Below are positions 4,756 to 64,000 of a DNA stretch of 64,000 nt, one piece after another (positions within the stretch are counted from its first letter, which is position 1; each line of letters begins with the position of its first letter). Below the pieces are notes generated by a model. It had not been told where the DNA came from. It saw only the letters and a list, made by a program, of their open reading frames with translations, and did not search any database. Where the stretch lies: assembly GCA_965205025.1 (NCBI GenBank), contig CBDBFU010000014.1, forward strand, positions 384,001 through 448,000, written 5' to 3'. The stretch is from Candidatus Poribacteria bacterium (GTDB lineage: Bacteria > Poribacteria > WGA-4E > WGA-3G). Both the position numbers and the translations under genes were made by a program.

Positions 4756-5076
4756 CATAGGCGTCAATTTAGTAAGATTATACCATTTTCAATTGATAGA
4801 TTTACATTAAGACTTATCTGATACAGGGATTATCATATACATATATGAGTCCCGTAGGGACGAAATGTCTATAGAAAACGTGTTTATCCACTATCTTGAG
4901 TCCCGGGGAATGCCTAAATGGCATTCATACCGTTGATTTGATAGGGACAGAATGTCTATAGGAATCGTTATCACCAATACACCAAGCCCCAGCGGGGCGA
5001 AAGGTGTGTAGAAAACGTACAAATCCTAAACTAAGCCCCAGCGGGGCGAAAGGTGTATCCTAAATTGACGCTAATG
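4756..5076. mobile_element. 321-bp MITE with IS4/IS231-like ends and a 20-bp target-site duplication
   Basis: Ends CATAGGCGTCAATTTAG and CTAAATTGACGCTAATG. Perfect flanking direct repeat GTAACTATAATAAGTATACC at 4736-4755 and 5077-5096. Confidence 0.8.
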
Positions 5077-5151
5077 GTAACTATAATAAGTATACCCAAT
5101 GCATTGTTAATCCCATCAGAATTTGAATAATTGAAAATCTAAAATACAATT

Positions 5152-6093
5152 ATGTCACAAAATACAGCCTTTACCTATCACCCCGACTACCTAAACCACG
5201 ACACTGGTGCCGGCCATCCCGAACGTCCGGATAGACTTCGATCAGGTTTAGCAGCACTAAAAGACAGTGATGTATGGGACACACTTCTACAAATTGAACC
5301 AACTCCAGCCAGTATAGACCAAATTGCTTATGCACATAATCAAGGATATAGCGACTATATCAAACAATACTGTGAAGCGGAGATTCCACTAACCTATGAC
5401 ACAATTGTCGTTCATGAATCCTTTGATATTGCCCTACTTTCTACCGGAGGGGTTTTATCTATAGCAGAAGCAGTTGTAACCAACAAAGCGAAGAACGGGT
5501 TTGCAATGGGGCGACCACCTGGTCATCATGCGACACCGGGACAGAGTATGGGGTTTTGTCTGTTTAACAATATCGCGATTACTGCACGGTATCTTCAACG
5601 TGAACATGGTATTGGTAAAGTGGCAATTGTGGATTGGGATGTACATCACGGAAACGGAACGCAGGATATATTCTATGAAGACGAAACGGTTTTCTTCTTC
5701 TCTATCCACCAATCTCCACTTTATCCTGGAACAGGATCAAAGAGTGATAAAGGTGGAGGTAAAGCATACGGAACAACACTGAACGTTCCTGTACCACCAG
5801 GCAGTGGTGATGACGATTACATTACCATATTTCAGGATATACTGATACCTACCTTACGTGATTATGCGCCTGAAATTATCCTTATATCCGCAGGATTTGA
5901 TGCGCACTTTCTTGACCCATTAGGTAATATAAATATCACCGCTGAAGGATTTGCCACATTGACAGATATGATTATGGAGATTGCAGAAGAAACTGCTTCT
6001 GGCAGAATCGTATCAGCATTAGAGGGTGGTTATAGTTTAGAAGGTCTTTCTGGATCTATCGTGGCGCATGTTGAACGGTTGAGTAAAGTGTGA
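5152..6093 (+). CDS. Histone deacetylase family protein (HDAC/AcuC-like amidohydrolase)
   Basis: HPERPDRL, RPPGHHA, GFCLFNN, DWDVHHGNGTQ, SAGFDAH..DP, LEGGY motifs. Confidence 0.95.
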   Translation: MSQNTAFTYHPDYLNHDTGAGHPERPDRLRSGLAALKDSDVWDTLLQIEPTPASIDQIAYAHNQGYSDYIKQYCEAEIPLTYDTIVVHESFDIALLSTGGVLSIAEAVVTNKAKNGFAMGRPPGHHATPGQSMGFCLFNNIAITARYLQREHGIGKVAIVDWDVHHGNGTQDIFYEDETVFFFSIHQSPLYPGTGSKSDKGGGKAYGTTLNVPVPPGSGDDDYITIFQDILIPTLRDYAPEIILISAGFDAHFLDPLGNINITAEGFATLTDMIMEIAEETASGRIVSALEGGYSLEGLSGSIVAHVERLSKV

Positions 6094-6126
6094 TGTAAAT
6101 GATTAATTTCGGTTCGCACAGTAGCA

Positions 6127-7737
6127 TTAAGTCTGAAATTCCGAAGGGACTTCTTGCACCACAGGAATGACATAACTCCGAAGCGTAAGACCTGACACCG
6201 TCTCTGTTTCTACAATTGTCTCTGGGTTCTGACGATGATCAAAGACGATGTAATAGCCTTCCGCCGCATCCTCCGATTTCAGATAAGCGGCGAGTTGTTG
6301 TTTCCCTGCTGCATAGCGGCGTAGTCCTTCCCAAATCTTGGTTTCAACGATATATTTCTGCTGGTTGTGGAGAATAATCAGGTCAAGTCTGCCACGCCCA
6401 GTTGGAACTTCAAGGAACATCGTTCCCCCTACGGTGCGGACGAATTGGTCAAGATAGGCAGAAAGCAGGTATTGACCAACAAACTCATGTGGGGTTTCTG
6501 GCACTTGAAGGATCTTGTAACCTGCACGCCTAATGAAGTTCTTGAAATTTTCAATGAGTAGCCCCATCTCAATCTGCCCATCGGAAGTCAGATACTCAAA
6601 AAAATCTCGACTCGTATTTTCAGGAAAGTAGTCACATTCCAGTCCGTTGATCAAAGGTTGGAACGTCTGCATGATGCAGTGTTGATAAATCGGATTGACT
6701 ATTTCACACATACCCTCAGCATCTTTGGCAATAACGCCATAAGTGGCGAGTACACTGATGATTTCGTCGCGATAAACGAAAGGAACACCTTTGTCATAAG
6801 AGACGATTTTCATTAGAAGGGTTTCAAAACGGCGGCTTTTTTTGATGTTGGTCGTCAAATGTGATAGGTTGGTATTATCTTCCTCAAGGAGTTGTGTGAG
6901 TGCTTGTGCAAAGTGCCCCATCCTAATCGTCTCAGTTTTGGGAATATCCAATTCTGTGGACAGAATCTGTCCGAACCGGTTAACGAGGAACGGCTGTCCA
7001 GCAGTCTGTCTGTGAATAGATTCAATCACTTCGGGGGCAAAGGGTTGCCCGACTTCATCGGTATACTGCCCAAAGAGGTCGCGCACCTGTTCCACAGTAA
7101 AGTTCGGCAGATGAAATTCGTCTTGGATGTTGAACGGTGAGATAGACCGGTCGTAGTTAAGTTGTGTGATGTTCTTGACTCCTACAATACCAACACTATA
7201 CAGACATCGCTCCACTTCAAAATGGTAGATGTGGCGGAGTGTATGAAGAAAATCACTGACAGCGGCTGGCGGGATGCCATCAAACTCATCAATGATAAAG
7301 ACAACTTTCTGTTCACCGTATTCAACTGCCAGTAAACTCGCGAAATCCTCAAAAAATTCTAACATTGAACCGTGATGATTGAAGTGGGTGTTATCTAAGA
7401 GTTGGGTCAATGCATCAGAAAGTCCGTGACCACGTTTCTGGAAAACGCTTTCAATGTGCTTGCGAATCCTTTTGTAAAGCAGCTCGTAAAAATCTGGAAC
7501 GGAGAAGTTTTTATAGATATCAAAACTGAGTTGAATCGGAAAATAGGTTGGATTTTCTGCGGTGAGCGTAGCGAGTGCCAATCGGAAAAACGTTGTCTTA
7601 CCGGTCTGGCGAGGGGCAAATAGGACGATGTACCGTCCATCCTTCACGCGGTTGATGAAATCTTTAACCTCCTCAGTGCGGGGGACGACATAATGTCGGT
7701 CAGGTCGTACCGAACCTTGGGTACCAAACGTTCTCAT
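6127..7737 (-). CDS. AAA-like ATPase with C-terminal PD-(D/E)XK nuclease domain
   Basis: Walker A APRQTGKT, Walker B FIIDEFD, SPFNI motif, C-terminal E..GRGRLDL..IVETK. Confidence 0.8.
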   Translation of the reverse strand: MRTFGTQGSVRPDRHYVVPRTEEVKDFINRVKDGRYIVLFAPRQTGKTTFFRLALATLTAENPTYFPIQLSFDIYKNFSVPDFYELLYKRIRKHIESVFQKRGHGLSDALTQLLDNTHFNHHGSMLEFFEDFASLLAVEYGEQKVVFIIDEFDGIPPAAVSDFLHTLRHIYHFEVERCLYSVGIVGVKNITQLNYDRSISPFNIQDEFHLPNFTVEQVRDLFGQYTDEVGQPFAPEVIESIHRQTAGQPFLVNRFGQILSTELDIPKTETIRMGHFAQALTQLLEEDNTNLSHLTTNIKKSRRFETLLMKIVSYDKGVPFVYRDEIISVLATYGVIAKDAEGMCEIVNPIYQHCIMQTFQPLINGLECDYFPENTSRDFFEYLTSDGQIEMGLLIENFKNFIRRAGYKILQVPETPHEFVGQYLLSAYLDQFVRTVGGTMFLEVPTGRGRLDLIILHNQQKYIVETKIWEGLRRYAAGKQQLAAYLKSEDAAEGYYIVFDHRQNPETIVETETVSGLTLRSYVIPVVQEVPSEFQT

Positions 7738-54889: not shown

Positions 54890-57800
54890 CTAATTATCTG
54901 CTACATCGTTAATTTGCAAATCTTCTACTGGTGTCCCATCAGTTTCGGTAACCCGCAAATAGAATCCCCAACTCATTCGCTCATTGCAAACCTTTACGAG
55001 GACGGTATTCTTGCCTGCCTTGAGCGTGACGGGAATAGTGTTTTTATCAAGTATGGCTGTTTGAGCGTTGGGATCTGTGAATATCTCTGCGCCATTTAGC
55101 CATATTTTTGATTGGTCATCACTACAAAATCGGAACAACGCTTCTCGCTCGTTAGGAGAGGTTACGGTTGCCATTGCATAAGAAACACGCCAATCAATGT
55201 CCTCACCGAAGTCAATAAAACCGTTAAAAGCATCATCGGTAAATTTTTTCCAACTTATTTGTCCATCAATGCCTTCATATTTCTTATTTAGATCAATTTG
55301 CGTTGTGTCTTCGGGGATGTATTTCGTATTGTATCCGATTCCAACCGTGTTATCAAATGGACCGAGTATCCACCATGCATTTTCATCAATCATACCTGTT
55401 TGTCTCATCTGTTCCATTGCCTTTTCCGGCATGTTGTTTTTATTGTAGTATTCCGCTAATCCGAGATTTACATTTACGTGGAAGGTCGGTTTGGGAGGTG
55501 GTGCGTTCAACATCTCATCAGCGTTAATGAATTTCAAATCATTAAACGGATTGCCATCTGCGTCTGTAAGTCGCATAAAAAAGTACGTGTATATACTTGC
55601 ATTGCATACCTTGACGAGAATAGTGTTTTCTCCTTTTTGCAGGGTAGCAGGAAAGTTGTAGCGGTCAACTTGTGCCCCACTCATTCTATCATGCTTAAAT
55701 ACCCCTTTTCCGTTTAACCAGACTATTCCTTGGTCATCGCTGTCAAATCGGATAGTAATATCGCGTTCATCAGGTGAAGAGACAATTGCCGATGCGTATG
55801 TTGCAGTCCAATCTATGTCTTCACCGAGCCAGATCATTCCATTTACTGTGTTGTCCTCCGGTTTTTGCCAATGAATGAGTTTATCTTTTCCATAATACTT
55901 TGCAGTTGTGTCAATTTGTGTGTTGTCCTCTGGGATATAAGCGGTATAGATGCCAACATTATCTTTATTGTCAAATGGACCTAAGGTTATCCATGCAGTT
56001 TCTGGAACAAAACCGGTTCTTAATAGATAGTTTTCCGCCTTCTTAGGCATCCCATTTTCTGCATAAGATTCAGCGATGATACGATGAATATTTGCGTGAG
56101 CATTTAAACTCTCTGCAGGAATGGAATTTATCAGTTCATTTAGTATTTGAATGAAACGTTCTTTGTCGTTTGCATTCTTACTTGCTGCAGCGATTTCCTC
56201 CCAAAACATATCCGAATAATGTTCATTAGGTATAAAGCTTAACGCATGTTTGAAGTGTTTTAGTGCCTCATCATAGAGTCCATTAGCGATACAAGCACGT
56301 CCAAGGGTTGTGGGATATGGAGAATAATATGAGTATGTATATTTGAAGAATGCACGTTTCGCGAAATTTAGTGCTGTTTCTGGATAAAGTCCTTTGTCAA
56401 GAAGTTTATCAGCAAAATTACGATAATTGGATGTATTCTGTGCACTGTTAACTGCTTTTTGCCGTATTTTCAACCACTGATCATAAGCGAGTTCCGCTTT
56501 ATCGGGATCACCTGTTTTTGTGTAGATGTCCCCTAAAAGTTCGTGCAGGACAGCACTATTATCCATTTTTGGGAATTTTTGATGTATCTCTTCAAGGATA
56601 GCAATGTGTTTGTCTTCTTGTCCTTCGCCATCGTAAAGTCCAATAATAGCGCGAACAGCAGAATCATATTCATTTTGTTTTAGAGTAGCAGCTAATGCGC
56701 GACGATACGATGCCTCCGCTTGTGAAGTCTGTTCGGTTTTAATATAGGTTTGTGCTAATAGGTCGTAGAGTTGGTATGAAGTCGGATCAAGTTCAATTGC
56801 TTTTTCATAAGCAGCTATTGACTTCGCCAATTGTTCGGGTATTGATTTTTCAGACGTAGTGCCTGTTTCACGGCTCTCTTGCGGTAGATTTTGATAAAGG
56901 TCACCAAGTTTTTTGTGCCACTGTGCGTTTTCTGACTCAAGTGCGGTAAGTCTTTCGTATTGCGTCACCGCTTCTTTAATTTTATCAAAGGCTTCATAAC
57001 TTTCAGCAAGTTTCAAGATACGTTTGGTATCGTTGGGATTCTGTTCCACTAATTTAAGCTGTTCCGGTATCCATTTTTCATAAAGATTACCGGATTTCGC
57101 TGCATCGTTCATTCCAGTTTCCGCTCTATTCCGTGCGTAACTATCGTCAGCATTTTTTGCCATCTGTTGATATACATTAAAAGCGTCTTCATACCGTTTG
57201 GCGGAGAGGTTGCTTTTGGCAAGAATTTCATACAAGTACTTTAGTTCCCAATTGTCATCGGAATTTTCTGCTTGAGTGACAGCATTATCAGCGAGTTTAA
57301 TAGCCGATTCATACATTTCATTATCAAGACATATAGTGGCAAGTGCCCCAAAGAATGACGAGTCCTGTTTATTTTTGATGGATGCAAAAGCGATGTCGGC
57401 TTGGTTCAGGACTGTTTTCACCATATCAGGCTGGTTATTTCTATGAAAGGCAGCAGCAGCGTGATAAAAACTGCGAATATTCCTACGATCCATCGGTTCA
57501 GTTTTACTAAGTAAGTGATATGTTTCGGCAGCTTTCTGGTAATCATTGGTATCCCAATAAATTTCAGCGAGCAGTTCAAGGACGGCAGGATTTGTAGCAT
57601 CCTTTTCAAATTTACCTTCGAAAAGGGTTGTCAATACATCAAGCTGCCCTTGATTTTTATAGACATTTATCAAGGTTTTGCGTGTCTCATCACCGTCAAA
57701 TCGGACTGTAATACCGTTTGAACTATAAGTCGTTGACCTCAGTATTGATTCTATCTCCTTTGATGTTTCGGTTTCGTAGTAGTCCAATGCCAAGTCTAAC

Positions 57801-58678
57801 CTATCTTGTTTTGAGTAGACATTGAGCAGGTCGTTGGCGATTTCATTTCTCTTATAGGGACTATCGGTCATTTCGAGTGCTTTTTTAAATGCATTAGCAG
57901 CTTTCTGTAATTCCCCGATATTACGAAAGTGTTGGGCGCGTTGTTTTTGCATCTCAAATGTAAGGGCACCTTCATCTTCAGTTTTCTGTAACATCTCTTC
58001 TAAATTTCCTTGATAACGATAAAGGTTGACCAATTGCCGTTCAATCCTTTCTCGATCCCATTCTGATGTTGTGGCTGAGATGGCATTCTTCAATGCTATT
58101 TCAGCAGCATCTATGTCCTCAATAAGGAAATAGTGTTCTGCAAGTCTGAGAAAGATTTCTTTATTGCTATATCCGAATACAGTTGCCATCTTATAGTTCT
58201 CGATGGCTGCAGCTACGTCACCTTCTGCTTCATAAAGTTTTGCGAGTCGTGCGTAATGTATCCCCACTTCGGGATATGTTTGAATATATGACTGCGCGAT
58301 TTCAAGTGCCTCGTTGTGTTGACCAGCAGCTTGTAAACTGTTAACAAGTTCATCTTGATACTTGATGTTTTCAGGTTCAGCTTCAAGCAGTTGGCTGTAG
58401 GTTTGTGCAGCTTTTTCGTGTTGATTTGTACGTGTGTAAAGCGATGCGAGTTGTGTGCGGGATTCATTGTCTTCAGGGGTTGCGATCACAATCCGTTCAT
58501 AGATTTCTATTGCTTCCTCTATTTTGTTTTGTTTCACGAATTCTTGTGCTCTATTGACGAATTCTTGTAAAGGTGTACGATTTTTTTCAGTGTCTTGTGC
58601 CGTAAGTTCTGTTATAAAAGGAACCACTATGATTAACATGAAAACGATTAAAAAGAATATCAATTTTGATCGTGTCAT
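54890..58678 (-). CDS. Large exported TPR protein with two C-terminal beta-sandwich repeats
   Basis: Signal peptide, extensive TPRs, duplicated AW..LGPFDN..YIPED..GEDIDW..SDDQ..WLNG..G.NT.LVKVCN domain. Confidence 0.8.
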   Translation of the reverse strand: MTRSKLIFFLIVFMLIIVVPFITELTAQDTEKNRTPLQEFVNRAQEFVKQNKIEEAIEIYERIVIATPEDNESRTQLASLYTRTNQHEKAAQTYSQLLEAEPENIKYQDELVNSLQAAGQHNEALEIAQSYIQTYPEVGIHYARLAKLYEAEGDVAAAIENYKMATVFGYSNKEIFLRLAEHYFLIEDIDAAEIALKNAISATTSEWDRERIERQLVNLYRYQGNLEEMLQKTEDEGALTFEMQKQRAQHFRNIGELQKAANAFKKALEMTDSPYKRNEIANDLLNVYSKQDRLDLALDYYETETSKEIESILRSTTYSSNGITVRFDGDETRKTLINVYKNQGQLDVLTTLFEGKFEKDATNPAVLELLAEIYWDTNDYQKAAETYHLLSKTEPMDRRNIRSFYHAAAAFHRNNQPDMVKTVLNQADIAFASIKNKQDSSFFGALATICLDNEMYESAIKLADNAVTQAENSDDNWELKYLYEILAKSNLSAKRYEDAFNVYQQMAKNADDSYARNRAETGMNDAAKSGNLYEKWIPEQLKLVEQNPNDTKRILKLAESYEAFDKIKEAVTQYERLTALESENAQWHKKLGDLYQNLPQESRETGTTSEKSIPEQLAKSIAAYEKAIELDPTSYQLYDLLAQTYIKTEQTSQAEASYRRALAATLKQNEYDSAVRAIIGLYDGEGQEDKHIAILEEIHQKFPKMDNSAVLHELLGDIYTKTGDPDKAELAYDQWLKIRQKAVNSAQNTSNYRNFADKLLDKGLYPETALNFAKRAFFKYTYSYYSPYPTTLGRACIANGLYDEALKHFKHALSFIPNEHYSDMFWEEIAAASKNANDKERFIQILNELINSIPAESLNAHANIHRIIAESYAENGMPKKAENYLLRTGFVPETAWITLGPFDNKDNVGIYTAYIPEDNTQIDTTAKYYGKDKLIHWQKPEDNTVNGMIWLGEDIDWTATYASAIVSSPDERDITIRFDSDDQGIVWLNGKGVFKHDRMSGAQVDRYNFPATLQKGENTILVKVCNASIYTYFFMRLTDADGNPFNDLKFINADEMLNAPPPKPTFHVNVNLGLAEYYNKNNMPEKAMEQMRQTGMIDENAWWILGPFDNTVGIGYNTKYIPEDTTQIDLNKKYEGIDGQISWKKFTDDAFNGFIDFGEDIDWRVSYAMATVTSPNEREALFRFCSDDQSKIWLNGAEIFTDPNAQTAILDKNTIPVTLKAGKNTVLVKVCNERMSWGFYLRVTETDGTPVEDLQINDVADN

Positions 58679-58869
58679 TGAGATATAACTTCTATGGATA
58701 AATATTCCGCCACTTCAAGATTCATCCGTTCTATTTCCGCGAGGAAACCGCCTGCGGATAATTCATAATTCCGGGGATTAGTTTCAAACGCTTTGAGTTT
58801 TTCAACTATTTTTTGAAAGTGCTCAATGCGTTTGAGTGTTGTTTTAAGTTCTTGATCATTTTGAATCAT
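58675..58869 (-). CDS. Small hypothetical protein (antitoxin-like)
   Basis: 64 aa beginning MIQNDQELKTTLKRI; stop overlaps the start of the TPR gene. Family assignment is tentative. Confidence 0.5.
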   Translation of the reverse strand: MIQNDQELKTTLKRIEHFQKIVEKLKAFETNPRNYELSAGGFLAEIERMNLEVAEYLSIEVISQ

Positions 58870-59082
58870 TATGAACTACCTCTACTATTACGGACTTGAT
58901 TAACGAGCCAAACATCGTCCCAAGCAAATTTGTCCTGCTTTTCTCTGTTTGCAATACCGTTGATTATTTTCCAAACTATACAATTAATAGATGAAATTGT
59001 CAATATCAATGCAGAGGTTGGTAGGGTTATTTTGTTTTCGTATTTTCTGCTATATTTTTTTACATTTCTATATAAACTACCT

Positions 59083-59169
59083 GTAGGTTGGGTTGAGGAA
59101 CGAAACCTAACATGTAACACTAAGCATACAGGAAATGTTGGGTTTCCCATGTGGTTCAACTCAACCTAC
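59083..59169. repeat. Inverted GTAG-type REP doublet (REPIN-like)
   Basis: GTAGGTTGGGTTGA..GAAACCTAACA and inverted TGTTGGGTTTC..TCAACTCAACCTAC. Confidence 0.75.
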
Positions 59170-59345
59170 GTAATAAACTATCAGTAACACTCATGCTGAT
59201 ATTTCAGATGGTTATAAAGGTATAAAAATAGACATTTAATCCTAATATACAGACAAAAAATAACGTGTAAAAACAGACATTTAATCCTAAATACTCAGAC
59301 AGTGAATTGTGTTGTTGTTGCATTTCTCTATTCACCGAAAAAATG

Positions 59346-59763
59346 AAAAAAGTTACACTTTTTGTCACACGGTGTGACATTGAAGTTGGTGTGAATTACC
59401 CCTGTAAACTCTGTCATAGACTGGCTTGAATCCACTTTGAATTAACTTTATAAGAAATTGAAAAAAATGTGATTTTGTGTTTTTGTTGTGCTTCCTGATT
59501 TTGACATTTCCAACGGTTAAAAAGGTATGCTTTTTTGACGTAAATGAAAGTGCGTAATTAGGATCGTTTTTATAGATAGTCATCTTTTAATTTCCTATGA
59601 ATATGTAGCTTTTAGTTGATGGTTTGTGTTCTAACCTGTAATCTTTTTCCTAACCCCTAATTTTCTTTTTATTTTGACAAATATTATTGATATGCTTTTC
59701 TGTTTTTGTGATTTATGTATGTTAGTTGTTAGATATGGGTGTTTTCTTCATTTTTTTAATTAA
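59346..59763 (-). repeat. Diverged inverted copy of the AT-rich segment at about 3289-4131
   Basis: Reverse complement shares TTAAAAAAA.TGAAGAAAA, TCTAACAACTAAC, TATTTGTCAAAAT and TCAATGTCACACC(A/G)TGTGACAAAAAGTGTAACTTT. Confidence 0.75.
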
Positions 59764-60056
59764 AAATGTGAGAACAACATTTCTTGTTAAAATCGTGGAT
59801 TATTGGCTCATGTGTTATTATGTTGTATTTTATGTTTGCGAATATAGGATGTTGACGTGCTTGTAGGTTATGCCGGTGAGATGCTCTTAAAATCCGGGTA
59901 AATCTGTGTCATCTGCGTAATCCGCGATTCAGACACTTTTTTTTTATGGTCATGGAGGGGTAAGCATTTCGGAGATGTTTTCTATTAATTTAACTTAAGG
60001 TTCCTTCCGCTCAAAGTCAGCAGTGCTTTATTTTTACAATTGAATGGATTCGTACT

Positions 60057-60653
60057 TTAGGGTAAATGGCTCCCACTGCCGGTTTGGGACCAGAAGTCTT
60101 CGGCGGTCTGTTGATGGTTCTGACTTAGCCACTGATGAATCCGCCTAAGAATGCGTGGCAACCCTTTTTGTGGCAAGTTTTTTGATTCCCAACTTGCCAT
60201 CTGCCTCCGTAGCGAAACATCAATCGGGTTTTCAACTGAAATATCTACTTGATGGCAGGTTTGTATCAGTTTTCGGTCATCTGTTGCTAAGACGTTAGCG
60301 CTTTGTGTGCGCGTTGCCTGTAAAAGTACAGCGTCCGTAATATCAATTTCCAATGTATCAGCAATCTGCATTGACGTGAGAGTTATCGGTAGGTCTATCT
60401 CAATAATTTTAATCGGACCGGCGGAAAATTTGGAAAGTTGTTGTGAGACAAGGTTAACATCTATATCATAGACCTTTGTGAGTATTGCTTTTACCTCCAA
60501 CAATGTAAGGGTTGTCGTGAACCAACCAGCGTGTTCTCGGATAAATGCCTCACATGCAGCAGATGCGGGGTGGTTATCAAGCAGTGAATAGACAATCAAC
60601 ATAGCGTCTAATCCGCGCGGTGCGAATTGATCAGAAGATAAGGTCATCACCAC
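60057..60653 (-). CDS. PIN-domain (VapC-like) toxin with C-terminal extension
   Basis: GLDAML, TLLEV, ITDAVL, LATDDRKL acidic residues typical of PIN; overlaps the upstream antitoxin gene. Confidence 0.75.
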   Translation of the reverse strand: MVMTLSSDQFAPRGLDAMLIVYSLLDNHPASAACEAFIREHAGWFTTTLTLLEVKAILTKVYDIDVNLVSQQLSKFSAGPIKIIEIDLPITLTSMQIADTLEIDITDAVLLQATRTQSANVLATDDRKLIQTCHQVDISVENPIDVSLRRQMASWESKNLPQKGLPRILRRIHQWLSQNHQQTAEDFWSQTGSGSHLP

Positions 60654-60859
60654 TTACCCTCGGACAAGTCTAATGCCGAAGGAGTTTCCATTTTCAGTTT
60701 TTTGGCATAAATATCGTCCCACGTCTGTGTAGTGGAAGGACGGATTAATATGCCATCGTCTGTTCTTTCGATCACGACACCCGATTCCAACCCCAATTCT
60801 TTCACCCAGTCAAGGGGTAATTTGATTTTATGATCGGTTTCTAACGAAAGTGTTTTCAT
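60647..60859 (-). CDS. AbrB/MazE-type antitoxin
   Basis: KIKLPLDWVKELGL..GVVIERTDDGILIRP. Confidence 0.75.
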   Translation of the reverse strand: MKTLSLETDHKIKLPLDWVKELGLESGVVIERTDDGILIRPSTTQTWDDIYAKKLKMETPSALDLSEGKW

Positions 60860-61016: not shown

Positions 61017-61508
61017 CTAATCTGCCTCACCTGCATCTTGAAGTGCGTTTTTGATGAGCAACTCGCTCAGGTGCATTCCGTTATCCTGTAACTGAATTAA
61101 AAGCGGCTTGATGACTTCAATTAAGCCTTTTTCCTTTGCCTCAAGTAAAACGCCTACTGTGCCTTTAGTCATTATTCTGATTTTTTTCGCCTTCTGTCTT
61201 CCCCTCTTTTCATCAAGAAGAACGAGCCGTGCGTCATGTTCATTAGCAAGAGCCAATGCCTCGGCTTCACCATCATCAAGTTCCGTATGAACTGCAGCGG
61301 TTCGCGGATCCGTTAAATCAATAGTCTTAATCCAGGGGGCATTTTCGAGTGCCTCTCGGCGGACTATTGGATCCTTTTTGAGAAACTCCTTTTCAACTTT
61401 TCTTGGAATCCACACCTCTGTATAAAGATCCCGCAACAGAGAAAGTAGGTTGAGGCCTAAGAGTCCAACAAGCGGACTGTTATTGCTAATAACTGGCTGT
61501 GTTGGCAT
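61017..61508 (-). CDS. DUF3368 family PIN-like toxin
   Basis: VISNNSPL..L.LLRDLY..VWIP..V..E, LDDGEAEALALA, LLDEKRGR..A, GTVGVLL.AK..GLI. Confidence 0.88.
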   Translation of the reverse strand: MPTQPVISNNSPLVGLLGLNLLSLLRDLYTEVWIPRKVEKEFLKKDPIVRREALENAPWIKTIDLTDPRTAAVHTELDDGEAEALALANEHDARLVLLDEKRGRQKAKKIRIMTKGTVGVLLEAKEKGLIEVIKPLLIQLQDNGMHLSELLIKNALQDAGEAD

Positions 61509-61510
61509 TC

Positions 61511-62800
61511 TTAATGTCCGCTATTGACAAGTTCCTCTTCATCAAGAGTCAAGAGAGAGAGTCCGTAATCTCCCATCAGATACCAGAATTCTTCGCGTGG
61601 CACACCTGCCAGACGTGCTGCCAGACCGCTGCTGAGTTCGTCGTTTCCATAATACTTCATTCCCAACGCGATCCGCGCATCTTTATCAATTTCAAACGGT
61701 TCGCTCCGCGGTGTCAACAACGTTACAATCTTTTTCGGCAAACGACTCCCTATCTTCTCCTCAAAGGCAGCAATGCTCCCGTGGATATTGTGAAATACAG
61801 CGGCAACATCCACTTCTTGAAGAAGTGCAGCAGTCAAATCGGTCTCCGCTTCTTCCCAACCTTTCGCAAGCAACCACGCCTCACCCCGTATATAATAGAA
61901 TTCAGGGACCTTTGGTCTGCGTGTTAGTGCCTCGGTATAATTCGCAATTGCGCTGTCTAACTCGGCTTTGGCACGATAAGCGTTGCCTCGATGTGTGTAT
62001 GCCTCCACAAGTTCTGAATTAATCTGTATGGCTTTGTCATAATCTTTAATCGCCTTGTCCAATTCGTTTTTGGCGTAGTAAACCTGACCCCGATTGAGGT
62101 ATGCCTCGGCAAATTCTGGATTGCAGTCGATTGCCTGACTATGATCTTCAATCGCTTTGTCTATCTCGCCTTGTTCGTTGTAGATGAGACCGCGGCAGGT
62201 ATAGGGTTCTGCAGATTTTGGGTTGAGTTCTATGGCTTTGTTGTAATCTACAATCGCCTTGTCTACCTCGTCTTTATCACGATAAGCCTTACCGCGTTCC
62301 GTATAAGCCTGGGTAAACTCTGGGGCCATCTCTATCGCAGCGTTATAGTCTTCAATCGCCTTGTCTACGTCCCCTTTGCTATGGTAGGTTATACCGCGTT
62401 CTTTATATCTATCGGCAGCCTCTTCGGGTTTGAGACGTATCGCCGTGCTAAAGTCTTGGATGGCTTTCTCAAAAACCAGCAGATTGCGGTAAGCCATCCC
62501 GCGGCCATAGTAGGCAAATGCATCGTCAGGTGTGAGGCTTATGACTTTGCTAAAATCATCGACTGCACGATAAAACTTGCCCTTGTTGTAGTAAGCTATG
62601 CCTTGCTGCCCGTAGGCAATGACATTTTCCGGATCCAGTTCTATTGCTTTGCTAAAGTCTGCAATGGCCTGATCGTACTCACCGTTTTTGAGGTGAGCAA
62701 TACCACGGGTGTTATGCATCGACGCAGCACCTCCGCTTTTTGCGTCAACAAAATCGCTGTTGTAATAGGTATCCACAGAACCTTGGATCAGTTCTTGCAT
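61511..62800 (-). CDS. TPR-array protein fused to a C-terminal UPF0175 antitoxin domain
   Basis: About nine 34-aa TPRs (AY..RG..Y...G..DKAI.DY.KAI.L.P), then ARIALGMKYY....LSSGLAARLAGVPREEFWYLMGDYGLSLL...EEEL. Confidence 0.85.
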   Translation of the reverse strand: MQELIQGSVDTYYNSDFVDAKSGGAASMHNTRGIAHLKNGEYDQAIADFSKAIELDPENVIAYGQQGIAYYNKGKFYRAVDDFSKVISLTPDDAFAYYGRGMAYRNLLVFEKAIQDFSTAIRLKPEEAADRYKERGITYHSKGDVDKAIEDYNAAIEMAPEFTQAYTERGKAYRDKDEVDKAIVDYNKAIELNPKSAEPYTCRGLIYNEQGEIDKAIEDHSQAIDCNPEFAEAYLNRGQVYYAKNELDKAIKDYDKAIQINSELVEAYTHRGNAYRAKAELDSAIANYTEALTRRPKVPEFYYIRGEAWLLAKGWEEAETDLTAALLQEVDVAAVFHNIHGSIAAFEEKIGSRLPKKIVTLLTPRSEPFEIDKDARIALGMKYYGNDELSSGLAARLAGVPREEFWYLMGDYGLSLLTLDEEELVNSGH

Positions 62801-63138
62801 CGGTTTTCTCCTTCACAAGGCAAGTTTCTTGAGGGTAATGATAACATACAATACGCCCTGATTTCAACGGAATGTAGGAGTGATCACCAGATCCCGACTG
62901 CTCTACTTATGGTTTGTTCATCCTCTATGTTCCGTTCCAGGATTGGAACTGTTGGTGTAAGCAGTTTTAGGAGTTACTCATCAGCTTGCCTTCACAATCC
63001 TACATTCTTTGCGATATACCTCACAATAGTCTGAATCGCGGATTACGCGGATGACATGGATTTCGCGGATTAGTGTTCTGTACAATCAAGTAATCTGCAA
63101 AGCGGAGAATTGAATAACGTTATCTGTGGGACAGCGGC

Positions 63139-63320
63139 TTAACTTGATAGATCACAAGTATGTGGTGTTATTTGAGGTACAACGGTATCTACTTCTTGAA
63201 TGGCATGCCAATCAATCACCGCAGTCCACAACTTTTCTTCTTCTGAGTAGTGAACAACACCTTCAGCCTCCAGTTCTTCGCTATAGATGATAAGGGATTG
63301 TCCCTCTTTTGAATCATTTT
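63139..63320 (-). pseudogene. 3' fragment of a small hypothetical gene, 5' end interrupted near a REP hairpin
   Basis: EGQSLIIYSEELEAEGVVHYSEEEKLWTAVIDWHAI looks coding; the apparent N-terminus overlaps the CTCCAGCGGAG repeat at 63337-63349. Confidence 0.4.
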
Positions 63321-63399
63321 TGCTTTCCACGATCTCGCTCCAGCGGAGTGCTCTGTCCATAGAGAGGTAAAAGGACTGGAAGATGTCAACATCCGTTTG

Positions 63400-63792
63400 T
63401 TACACAACCCATGATTGTATACGATCTGCGATGACCGTAATATTGGTGATAGTGCCATCCGCAATCTTAAAACCGAGGTCAATAATCGAATCATCAAGAT
63501 CTAGCAACAAGAAGTACCCGTTTATGTTTAAAAACAAAAGCATGCAATGCATACCAATACGCTTATTCCCATCCAAAAATATGTGTCCGGTAATGATATG
63601 ATGTGCATAAACAGCGGCTTTTTGGAATATAGTTGGATAAAATTCTATATCTCCAAATTTCCCGCCAACCGCTTCAACCAAATAGTGTAACTGATTTTCC
63701 TTGAGCACCTGATAGTCGTCTACGTAGTCTATGGCAACTTTCAGGATATCCTCAATTGTCAAATATCTTATAAGTTGTCGAGGGCTTTCCAT
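63400..63792 (-). CDS. Death-on-curing (Doc/Fic) family toxin
   Basis: YLTIEDI, FYPTIFQKAA, Doc motif HIFLDGNKRIG. Confidence 0.9.
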   Translation of the reverse strand: MESPRQLIRYLTIEDILKVAIDYVDDYQVLKENQLHYLVEAVGGKFGDIEFYPTIFQKAAVYAHHIITGHIFLDGNKRIGMHCMLLFLNINGYFLLLDLDDSIIDLGFKIADGTITNITVIADRIQSWVV

Positions 63793-64000
63793 GCGCGATC
63801 GTAGTCTTGTAGTATTCCATCCGAGGTGATAATAACATCAACCCCCATATTTCTGGCAGTTGTCAAGTCTGATTTGGCTTTTTCTCGTTCTCCGAGGCGT
63901 AGAAATACTCCGCCCCGACTGTAATAAGCATCAGCATAATCGGGATCGAAGTCTATTGCTTTTGTATAGTCTTCAATGGCACGTTCAACCTCACCTATTT
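63768..64000 (-). CDS. TPR protein C-terminus (partial, runs off the window) ending in a Doc-antidote-like peptide
   Basis: Own translation 63998-63768: IGEVERAIEDYTKAIDFDPDYADAYYSRGGVFLRLGEREKAKSDLTTARNMGVDVIITSDGILQDYDRAWKALDNL*; overlaps the Doc start. Confidence 0.8.
   Translation of the reverse strand, partial: IGEVERAIEDYTKAIDFDPDYADAYYSRGGVFLRLGEREKAKSDLTTARNMGVDVIITSDGILQDYDRAWKALDNL

Follow-up and report, generated by a model that had tools for sequence, protein, structure and literature searches.

Two neighbouring poribacterial operons couple TPR proteins bearing putative antitoxin tails to PIN-like and Doc toxin-family genes

Two adjacent operons on the minus strand of the analysed DNA, a stretch of 64,000 nucleotides from the genome of a sponge symbiont (Candidatus Poribacteria) hereafter called the window, each combine a TPR gene with the gene of a toxin family. 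The two TPR proteins share a terminal cap and diverge behind it into different C-terminal tails, a UPF0175 domain in one case and a stretch of 21 residues in the other, and the tails are followed by a DUF3368/COG2405 PIN-like gene and by a Doc gene, respectively. This layout, which the original prediction had described from the window, is borne out by the gene order and by a cap profile. The data establish the architecture and show that it recurs, that tail and toxin co-vary, that the chassis is common to both operons and that purifying selection acts on it. Judging from the sequences, we consider it probable that both operons are of the type II toxin-antitoxin type, the antitoxin being the C-terminal tail of a TPR protein that is built on one common chassis. 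Such a TPR-antitoxin fusion is apparently a previously undescribed design, none having been found by exact-phrase searches of open-access text.

The first operon consists of a 429-aa TPR-UPF0175 gene, the putative antitoxin (61511-62800, minus strand), and a 163-aa DUF3368/COG2405 PIN-like gene, the putative toxin (61017-61508, minus strand), which starts 2 nt past the stop codon of its partner. The 429-aa protein, which contains AETDLTAALLQEVDV, begins with the leader MQELIQGSVDTYYNSDF and continues through about eight TPRs into a module made of the terminal repeat, the cap and an 'FH' segment (61712-61912, minus strand, residues 297-363). A complete UPF0175 domain occupies its end (61529-61708, minus strand, residues 365-424). 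The FH segment is a conserved stretch of 30 aa between the cap and UPF0175 (COG2886, HTH-like). Both family labels of the original prediction proved correct: the tail matches PF03683 with 47 bits against a cut-off of 27.9, over profile positions 10-69 of 75, and the PIN-like protein matches PF11848 (2.6e-13) as well as the PADLOC model PDC-S70 (2.3e-42 over residues 6-161). PF03683 is also found on 19 of 20 database matches to residues 300-429, in proteins of 236-657 aa. Neither the PIN nor the UPF0175 part, nor the Doc-type tail described below, had a significant match in sequence searches of the PDB.

The second operon lies at the end of the window. Its TPR gene is represented by the 3' end (63768-63998, minus strand), which runs off the window end at 64000 and comprises 76 codons with TPR family matches plus a stop, closing with AKSDLTTARNMGVDVIITSDGILQDYDRAWKALDNL. 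The terminal repeat and cap (about 63834-63941, minus strand; cap profile 51.6 bits) are followed directly by the 21-aa tail IITSDGILQDYDRAWKALDNL (63771-63833, minus strand; stop codon 63768-63770). The downstream gene encodes a 130-aa protein of the death-on-curing (Doc), Fic-fold toxin family (63400-63792, minus strand) and overlaps the TPR gene by 25 nt. Its assignment to Doc, likewise made in the original prediction, is confirmed by matches to Pfam Fic PF02661 (2.9e-10), to TIGR01550 DOC_P1 (59.5 bits, cut-off 38.65) and to the PDB Doc chains 9vzc_A (4.1e-9) and 3k33_A (2.9e-5). The Doc motif is defined as HxFxD(A/G)NKR, and the form present here, HIFLDGNKR, is invariant in 27 relatives. 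Among 527 Doc relatives at E<=1e-5, all those named by source are Candidatus Poribacteria Doc toxins.

Relatives of the Doc-type tail are about 21 aa long, sit directly after the cap and follow the pattern ..IL.DYDRAWK.L.NL; positions D60, I62, D65-K71, L73 and N75 are invariant in five sequences, including the whole DYDRAWK core. The original prediction had called this tail Doc-antidote-like, a likeness that we could not substantiate. The tail alone matches no antitoxin family in Pfam, NCBIfam or the PDB, and the ORF upstream of Doc matches TPR families only, with no Phd/YefM, AbrB or RHH match in Pfam or NCBIfam. A resemblance to known Doc partners was seen by eye as A[FYW]..L[AD][KN] in two to three of five partner C-termini and failed when turned into a profile: with a model of the C-termini of five antitoxin-position proteins beside annotated Doc relatives, three of the tails ranked 456, 1666 and 1708 among 7747 ORF ends. 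We dropped this likeness as evidence because the five-sequence profile misses the poribacterial tails. It is the position and the conservation of the tail that suggest its antitoxin role.

The two TPR genes share more than their general repeat character. The string A..DLT.A....VDV, proposed originally as the signature of the common cap, has exactly two occurrences when the 64-kb window is translated in all six frames, one in each TPR gene. We modelled the terminal repeat and cap as a 36-column profile, with the UPF0175/cap family as its sole source. In the five Doc-type proteins, this profile gives 29-52 bits for the terminal repeat and no more than 16 bits for internal repeats; since it thus picks the Doc-type terminal repeats over the internal ones, the common cap exceeds general TPR likeness. 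The signature itself is only partly general: the cap is retained, whereas the letters VDV are replaced by GINN, GNED or GSED in Doc-type relatives. The consensus of the complete cap+FH module, ..W..A..DL..A...G.D[VI]...FH....S...FE...G..LP..I..LLT, is matched by the 429-aa protein with 123.5 bits, and in the Doc-type gene the FH segment is missing behind the terminal repeat and cap. NCBIfam NF047558, a 'TPR end-of-group domain', was rejected as the identity of the cap: it scores 60.9 on the whole protein (cut-off 32), its best stretch is an internal repeat at residues 35-59, and the isolated cap and tail segments do not match it at E<=10.

The likeness extends to the other end of the genes. 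The N-terminal leader and first repeats are common to both types, with 45% identity over 148 aa from residue 1 between one protein pair (P0022 and P0004). Upstream of the TPR-UPF0175 gene lies a promoter-like site (TTGAAA, 18 nt, TG-TATCAT; 62838-62867, minus strand), after which the 5'UTR is conserved, with GGAG ahead of the ATG at 62800. The block TTGACA...TGTTATCAT...TTGTGGAGG.GAAAAGTGATG can be aligned ahead of 15 of the 17 leader-type genes, and the Doc-type TPR gene of locus L023 is preceded by the same block. Inspection of the upstream alignment by eye revealed no consistent operator palindrome in the 5'UTR.

We then consider recurrence in 46 fetched loci from 39 assemblies, labelled Poribacteria (41), 'uncultured bacterium' (4) and Verrucomicrobiia (1, a weak TPR-only match). 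The loci were fetched by patterns derived from the fusion, one of them inside the cap, and the counts of tails and toxins add the window. Fusions are present in 45 loci of 38 species-level genomes. Tail type and toxin type, whose co-variation the original prediction had put forward as its check, co-vary completely in this sample. A PIN gene comes next in 48 of the 53 UPF0175-tailed TPR ORFs (39 intact-looking, 9 remnants) and is absent within 900 nt in the remaining 5, so that PIN is decayed or missing in 14 of the 53 fusions; Doc is never found downstream of a UPF0175 tail. Doc follows the Doc-type tail in all three cases with genomic context, overlapping by 4 or 25 nt, and neither toxin follows any of 39 other TPR ORFs (14 cap-ended or TaqI_C-ended, 25 other). 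The coupling is tight, the distance from the stop of TPR-UPF0175 to Met1 of PIN being -26 to +11 nt in 38 pairs. All 53 UPF0175 matches in the loci and window stand behind a cap+FH module and none stands alone, but the absence of free UPF0175 genes reflects a biased sample, because the fetch patterns came from the fusion itself. The fusions range from 170 to 1346 aa. The smallest, of 170 aa, form tandem arrays in two loci (L038 and L044) and have about two repeats and cap+FH before UPF0175, while six UPF0175-type ORFs carry further cap+FH modules inside their long forms. In plasmid and phage collections, no TPR-antitoxin fusion was found; the matches comprised TPR proteins of a generic kind and, in Planktothrix, free UPF0175 genes.

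The surroundings in the window include a third, conventional pair directly downstream (60057-60859) that is not TPR-linked: a 70-aa AbrB/MazE-like ORF (60647-60859, minus strand; PF04014 MazE_antitoxin 0.0035, below cut-off) and a 198-aa PIN gene (60057-60653, minus strand; PF01850 6.9e-8, above cut-off). Between the two TPR operons, a 73-aa ORF (63139-63360, minus strand) corresponds to a conserved small protein of 86-103 aa that is shortened at the N-terminus here; its full-length relatives adjoin TPR-UPF0175 pairs elsewhere. It has no family match in Pfam or NCBIfam and probably lies outside the TPR-toxin modules. Rfam and tRNA scans of the 56-64 kb interval found nothing.

The chassis also exists beyond antitoxins. 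The full cap module was found in 125 database proteins, 97 of which end there without a tail; because most of these proteins lack an antitoxin tail, the TPR part has a function of its own. Other C-terminal ends are TaqI_C, nuclease-like, DUF4268 and TIR, and some chassis proteins have an N-terminal TIR (ThsB-like) or FRG (PDC-S15) domain. One further tail (P0219/P0248) was considered as YefM-like and set aside, its match to Rv2865 being non-significant (E 0.78) and Pfam and NCBIfam giving no match. The modular TPR-antitoxin/toxin platform of the original prediction therefore survives as swappable tails on a common chassis, and not as an antitoxin family.

These tail-less proteins invite a reading in which the TPR proteins are primarily 'eukaryote-like' host-interaction factors or scaffolds of other defences, and the fused cassettes serve only selfish addiction or stabilisation, the TPR part having no control over the toxin. 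The number of repeats varies freely while the tails stay constant, as this reading would have it, and the internal cap+FH modules of the long forms suggest simple read-through fusion of adjacent genes. The accessible text of PMC3909097 takes poribacterial TPR proteins, whose near-consensus arrays are abundant in the phylum, to be candidates for host interaction; its main text nowhere uses the words TIR, FRG or antitoxin. However, even the 170-aa forms keep their two or so repeats with cap+FH, and no free UPF0175 gene occurs in the loci, selected as they were by fusion-derived patterns. Purifying selection on cap+FH (dN/dS 0.18) is as strong as on the UPF0175 domain (0.14), and the N-terminal partners are of defence type rather than secretion signals. 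We regard this explanation as unlikely. That the fusions are accidents with no selected function, arising from errors of assembly or gene calling or from cassettes that landed sporadically in TPR gene ends, is very improbable and already contradicted. Many source genomes are metagenome-assembled, repetitive TPR arrays are prone to misassembly, and in one locus (L023) the Doc-type TPR gene is frameshifted and its Doc truncated. Yet an unbroken open frame runs through 53 UPF0175-tailed ORFs in 38 genomes, of which several are complete 5-6 Mb chromosomes; no part of these proteins is better conserved than the junction at which cap+FH passes into UPF0175. The promoter and leader are conserved as well, and the co-variation of tail and toxin is complete. 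The dN/dS values, 0.14-0.23 with PIN included and far below 1, indicate that purifying selection acts on the fusions, which are not sporadic; the original prediction had likewise argued against accident.

A different doubt concerns the PIN-like protein, which might be catalytically dead, the TPR-UPF0175/PIN pair then being a regulatory or scaffolding complex instead of a functional toxin-antitoxin pair. Position 9, which we take to be the first catalytic Asp, with catalytic columns assigned from general PIN patterns, is Asn in 31 of 37 copies; toxicity is therefore not assured and the nuclease may be inactive. The Asp is nevertheless retained in the other 6 copies, E31, E41, E81 and D99 are invariant in all 37, and the gene is under constraint (dN/dS 0.23). 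That PIN often decays where its antitoxin gene persists, giving 9 remnants and 5 losses among the 53 fusions, is what one usually sees when a gene is harmful. The dead-PIN explanation also does not extend to the Doc pair, with its intact Fic motif, and we find it distinctly improbable. In the accessible parts of the literature, the COG2405 family is tabulated with 2-5 conserved active-site residues, marked '+/-' (PMC5499597), and PDC-S70 is described as lacking experimental validation (PMC12988326), both of which would fit an inactive protein.

Returning to the type II reading, we propose a mechanism in which the common chassis, with its conserved promoter and 5'UTR, short N-terminal leader, variable number of near-consensus TPRs and terminal repeat with cap helix, would present one of several tails. 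Each tail would bind and neutralise its own toxin, whose translation would be coupled to the TPR gene or begin within it: the DUF3368/COG2405 PIN-like protein would be the partner of the UPF0175 tail, and the Doc kinase-type toxin that of the Doc-type tail. The repeats, preceded in some proteins by a TIR or FRG domain, could act as an added protein-binding module that sets the availability of the tail, e.g. via turnover, oligomerisation or the binding of a ligand. What we infer here is the toxicity, its neutralisation by the tails and whatever sensing role the repeats may have. New tail combinations may arise from recombination within the repeats and in-frame fusion of adjacent TPR genes. A bolder version, possible in our view though doubtful, sees the recombining TPR chassis as a general poribacterial adaptor, a protein-binding sensor with exchangeable outputs: N-terminal TIR or FRG, tails against no fewer than two unrelated toxins (the PIN-like protein and Doc), possibly a YefM-like-looking tail, and nuclease-like or TaqI_C ends. 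The TPR-antitoxin/toxin pairs would then be ligand-triggered abortive-infection or stress switches, in which a phage or host protein that binds the repeats would pull the tail away and so release the toxin. For a link between TIR domains and TPR in Poribacteria, open-access text searched by exact phrase gave nothing relevant.

With the predicted type II pair of UPF0175 (COG2886) and COG2405-DUF3368 PIN, the first operon shares the domain families, the antitoxin-first order, the strand and the tight coupling. The described antitoxins are small, whereas UPF0175 here forms the last 65 residues of TPR proteins of 170-1346 aa (429 aa in the window), joined through the cap+FH junction and sometimes preceded by TIR or FRG. 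In the accessible portions of PMC5499597 and PMC2701414, UPF0175 is reported only beside COG2405, as a predicted HTH antitoxin. The PIN component of that pair corresponds to the PADLOC candidate defence system PDC-S70. The second operon resembles Phd-Doc of phage P1 and its relatives in having a Doc with a Fic-type motif and an upstream gene that overlaps the toxin start. The C-terminal helix of Phd binds Doc and, by analogy, the Doc-neutralising element here is likely a short C-terminal stretch of the upstream TPR protein. In contrast to Phd, this protein consists of a TPR array and a 21-aa tail with no Phd/YefM, AbrB or RHH fold, and it has no evident DNA-binding domain through which it could autoregulate.

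Sensor-linked or multidomain comparators are the fused CapRel-type systems, the promiscuous Panacea antitoxin domain, the chaperone-dependent TAC antitoxins and the TPR sensor arms of Avs/STAND proteins. The idea common to all is a neutralising element with an extra module that decides toxin release. The operons described here combine one constant module with different toxin families. They differ in having no NTPase; in Panacea the constant module is the antitoxin, here it is the TPR chassis and the putative neutralising tails differ. As for the 'eukaryote-like' TPR proteins of Poribacteria and sponge symbionts, they have the same abundant near-consensus arrays in the same phylum (accessible text of PMC3909097), and what distinguishes the present subset is its tie to toxin genes and defence-type domains. 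On sequence grounds, the TPR-tailed pairs are a putative variant of type II toxin-antitoxin systems apparently not seen before.

If the tails do neutralise, one repeat-protein chassis would have captured the antitoxins of unrelated toxin families, providing a natural system in which to study the control of toxin release by an added binding domain. The unvalidated PDC-S70 or UPF0175-COG2405 pair and the Phd-less Doc module would gain concrete partners. Lastly, part of the 'eukaryote-like' TPR repertoire of sponge symbionts would belong to the machinery of conflict or defence and not to the factors of host interaction.

All the relevant genes of the window lie on the minus strand. A TPR ORF truncated by the edge of the window (63768-63998, with 76 codons inside it, ending in ...AKSDLTTARNMGVDVIITSDGILQDYDRAWKALDNL) overlaps by 25 nt (63768-63792) the gene of a 130-aa Doc toxin (63400-63792). 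The toxin matches Pfam Fic (2.9e-10), TIGR01550 (59.5 bits vs a cut-off of 38.65) and the PDB Doc chains 9vzc_A and 3k33_A, and its HIFLDGNKR motif is invariant across 27 relatives. The second module comprises a 429-aa protein (61511-62800), with at least eight TPRs and UPF0175 at residues 365-424 (47 bits vs a cut-off of 27.9), and a 163-aa DUF3368 protein (61017-61508), which starts 2 nt past the stop codon of the former and matches the PADLOC candidate PDC-S70 over its full length (2.3e-42). The combination of UPF0175 (COG2886) with an adjoining COG2405/DUF3368 gene has been predicted as a toxin-antitoxin pair (PMC5499597 and PMC2701414), with UPF0175 reported from no other setting than beside COG2405 and predicted to be an HTH antitoxin; PDC-S70 is described in PMC12988326 as an unvalidated PIN candidate from 'guilt-by-embedding'. 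A conventional pair is located beside them, formed by a 70-aa ORF (60647-60859), a weak AbrB/MazE-like partner below the Pfam cut-off, and a 198-aa PIN toxin (60057-60653), whose Pfam match stops at residue 132, with a C-terminal extension of ~65 aa beyond the PIN domain. The housekeeping genes for GAPDH, TIM, SecG and GatB are found further upstream in the window, and we therefore regard the gene cluster as a chromosomal islet rather than an obvious mobile element.

The original prediction held that one TPR scaffold carries swappable antitoxin tails, each placed before its cognate toxin, and this co-variation is borne out in related genomes. A scan with the fusion alignment A1, using one genome per species, provided 46 loci in 39 assemblies (41 Poribacteria, 4 'uncultured bacterium' and 1 Verrucomicrobiia by record title, the last a weak match through TPR only); their best identity to the window is 86%, and the window's own genome is not among them. 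PIN is the next gene for 48 of the 53 UPF0175-tailed ORFs of these loci and the window (39 intact-looking, with at least 140 of the 163 residues covered by a single tblastn segment, and 9 partial remnants), and five have no PIN within 900 nt downstream; Doc is next in none. Conversely, Doc follows all three Doc-type tails and PIN none of them. Neither toxin follows the TPR ORFs whose end lies no more than 15 aa past the cap module (n=9), those in which this module is joined to a 351-aa TaqI_C domain (n=5), or the other TPR ORFs (n=25).

In 53/53 UPF0175-type ORFs the UPF0175 domain is preceded by the terminal repeat, the cap and a conserved 30-aa FH segment, and no free UPF0175 ORF occurs among the 46 loci and the window; because the loci were gathered through the fusion itself, this sample is uninformative on free antitoxins elsewhere in the genomes. 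A database query with residues 300-429 returned 20 proteins, 19 of them with PF03683, a tail identity of 63-86% and a total length of 236-657 aa, some with FRG or TIR. In the fetched loci and the window the fusions span 170-1346 aa (median 475), and PIN Met1 lies -26 to +11 nt from the stop codon of the antitoxin gene (38 pairs). The PIN reaches at least 150 aa in 37/49 ORF-level matches. In the loci L038 (2219-4941, 9089-12199) and L044 (9797-14611), minimal pairs of a 170-178-aa TPR-cap-UPF0175 gene and a 163-aa PIN gene stand in tandem, three or four to an array. PIN position 9 (window codon 61482-61484), presumably that of the first catalytic Asp judging by PIN patterns, carries Asn in the window and in 31/37 relatives and Asp in 6/37; the PIN-like protein may lack nuclease activity. 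Median pairwise Nei-Gojobori dN/dS values are 0.18 for cap+FH (762 pairs), 0.14 for UPF0175 (775 pairs) and 0.23 for PIN (148 pairs).

The description of the other tail as 'Doc-antidote-like' is not supported, as its 21-aa sequence matches no antitoxin family in Pfam, NCBIfam or PDB sequences. Antitoxin-position genes beside five annotated Doc relatives have the ends ...EAYKELAK, ...DAFNELAK, ...AVYEELAK, ...ALEKLSKN and ...GLLDRLK, which loosely resemble ...RAWKALDNL; their profile misses the tail, ranking poribacterial tails 456, 1666 and 1708 of 7747, and we therefore dropped this resemblance as evidence. The tail is nonetheless recurrent. The last 42 residues, in a word-limited search with only 4 candidates, retrieved the database proteins P0021 (TIR-TPR-tail, 317 aa) and P0022 (173 aa), and DYDRAWK is present in two further ORFs of fetched loci. 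One (L008 11712-12050) lies directly behind a TPR-UPF0175/PIN pair and shares a 4-nt overlap with a 123-aa Doc; the other (L023 1518-1751) overlaps a Doc cut off at 51 aa, and its TPR gene is frameshifted, so that this module is decaying. D, I, DYDRAWK, L and N are invariant in the five Doc-type tails. For the Doc, 527 relatives were obtained at E<=1e-5; the top 120 are 66-78% identical, and those for which a source gives a name are called Candidatus Poribacteria Doc toxins; at least 130 aa are found in 66 of these 120, and 54 start with M[KR]YLT. Forms of 130 aa begin with 7 additional residues, mostly MEN[SP]RQH. From possible codons read off the protein, we infer that this extension, two bases out of frame, would be compatible with an overlapping ...WKTLGN.. 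end, an indirect hint as to the genes upstream of these relatives; the reading frame of the overlapping tail may be what maintains the extension.

The cap A..DLT.A....VDV is found twice in the six-frame translation of the window, at the two tail-bearing TPR genes. Its specificity was tested because the A..D...A part is the plain TPR B-helix consensus. A 36-column profile of terminal repeat and cap, derived from 68 cap sequences with the Doc type excluded, gives 69.2 bits for the terminal repeat of the 429-aa protein and at most 13.4 bits for its internal repeats; the corresponding values for Doc-type proteins are 29.2-51.6 and at most 16.0 bits. Since terminal repeats outscore internal ones, the cap is a real feature common to both types. 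The letters VDV vary in Doc-type relatives. The NCBIfam 'TPR end-of-group' model was rejected as the identity of the cap, which it does not describe.

The non-TPR leader and the first repeats are also common to both types: Doc-type P0022 is 45% identical to UPF0175-type P0004 over 148 aa, aligning from residue 1, and the L023 Doc-type gene is 43% identical to P0013 over 181 aa, starting at MQGLNQE. A promoter/5'UTR block, TTGACA-17/18-TGTTATCAT...TTGTGGAGG.GAAAAGTGATG, aligns upstream of 15/17 leader-type UPF0175 genes, with the site at 62838-62867 of the window among them, and also precedes the L023 Doc-type gene. Six long UPF0175-type ORFs (L008 9779-9979, L015 10409-10609, L018 9779-9979, L030 7141-7341, L035 5702-5902 and L041 11048-11248) and P0002 (residues ~80-145) contain an internal cap+FH module, from which we conclude that long forms originated when a neighbouring TPR gene upstream was fused in frame to the antitoxin-bearing one. 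Among ten UPF0175-type ORFs scanned for their N-terminal extensions of at least 55 aa, FRG is found in two, TIR in one and two TIR (one ThsB-like) in one; six gave no domain match.

This chassis is not restricted to antitoxins. Profile A2 (cap+FH, 67 columns) matched 13,422 of 1.84 billion representative proteins at E<=1e-3, 1,651 at E<=1e-10 and 44 at E<=1e-30; many of the weak matches must be plain TPR proteins. Among the best 150, 25 match via repeats only and 125, known from protein sequence alone, have the full module; 97 of the latter end within 15 residues past it and 28 continue. The continuations are UPF0175 (six), a TaqI_C-like domain (nine; PF12950 in locus copies), an end like the C-terminus of the retron Ec67 RT/endonuclease model (two; P0233 at 1.8e-11, P0216 by similar sequence), DUF4268 (one), TIR with pentapeptide repeats (one), an 81-aa tail that is antitoxin-like by eye with no significant match (two), the ENYARAWKTL-containing tail of P0282, reminiscent of the Doc-type tail, and, for the remainder, further repeats or low-complexity sequence. 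In five loci, TIR- or FRG-TPR-cap+FH proteins have the 351-aa TaqI_C-like end (L023 2252-4924, L005 5437-8247, L006 3246-8198, and the same architecture at L013 5836-9084 and L022 4384-8124), which matches the C-termini of PADLOC type IIG restriction enzymes. The L023 copy overlaps by 4 nt an AAA ATPase gene of the PtuA/GajA/AriA kind (4921-6360), and the two resemble a candidate defence module in its own right that uses this chassis.

Small conserved ORFs adjoin these genes. One of 64-77 aa (MIQN.QELE.TL.RI..FQK....L...ETNP.NY.LSAGGFLAEI.RMNLEV) immediately precedes a TPR-chassis gene in 6/6 places seen (window 58675-58869, minus strand; L039 9449-9673, L005 9711-9932, L024 9656-9880, L006 9650-9793, L023 1949-2182); it has no Pfam, NCBIfam or PADLOC match and might represent another small partner or a regulator. 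The 64-aa window copy is separated from the toxin-antitoxin cluster by 1.2 kb of AT-rich sequence (58870-60056, GC 0.31-0.34) in which no ORF matched a family and scans for tRNAs and Rfam families found nothing. The copy overlaps by 4 nt the beginning of the gene for a 1262-aa TPR protein (54890-58678, minus strand), which combines an N-terminal signal-like segment with TPRs, lacks the cap+FH module, and shows in its C-terminal half two similar ~130-aa stretches (WI/WW.LGPFDN...Y.A..V.SP.ER...) as well as a weak Glyco_hydro_2_N-like match. Between Doc and the TPR-UPF0175 gene, a 73-aa ORF (63139-63360) encodes an N-terminally truncated version of an 86-103-aa protein (MNKP.VFADFHN.DA.GR.RLNC...IIYSEELE.EG.V.YSEEE.LWTAVIDW.AIQE) that adjoins TPR-UPF0175 pairs in three other genomes (L009 7528-7839, L005 12460-12744, L012 11318-11578); neither form has a family match.

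An exact-phrase search of open-access full texts found no description of a TPR-antitoxin fusion. A poribacterial single-cell genomics paper (PMC3909097) presents TPRs as eukaryote-like host-interaction candidates, and its main text is without the words TIR, FRG and antitoxin. The best-supported reading of our data is that the window contains two toxin-antitoxin-type operons in which a tail, carried by a common and recombining TPR chassis, is the putative neutralising element. The TPR part itself could act as a sensor, a scaffold or a stabiliser, or have a host-interaction function of its own.
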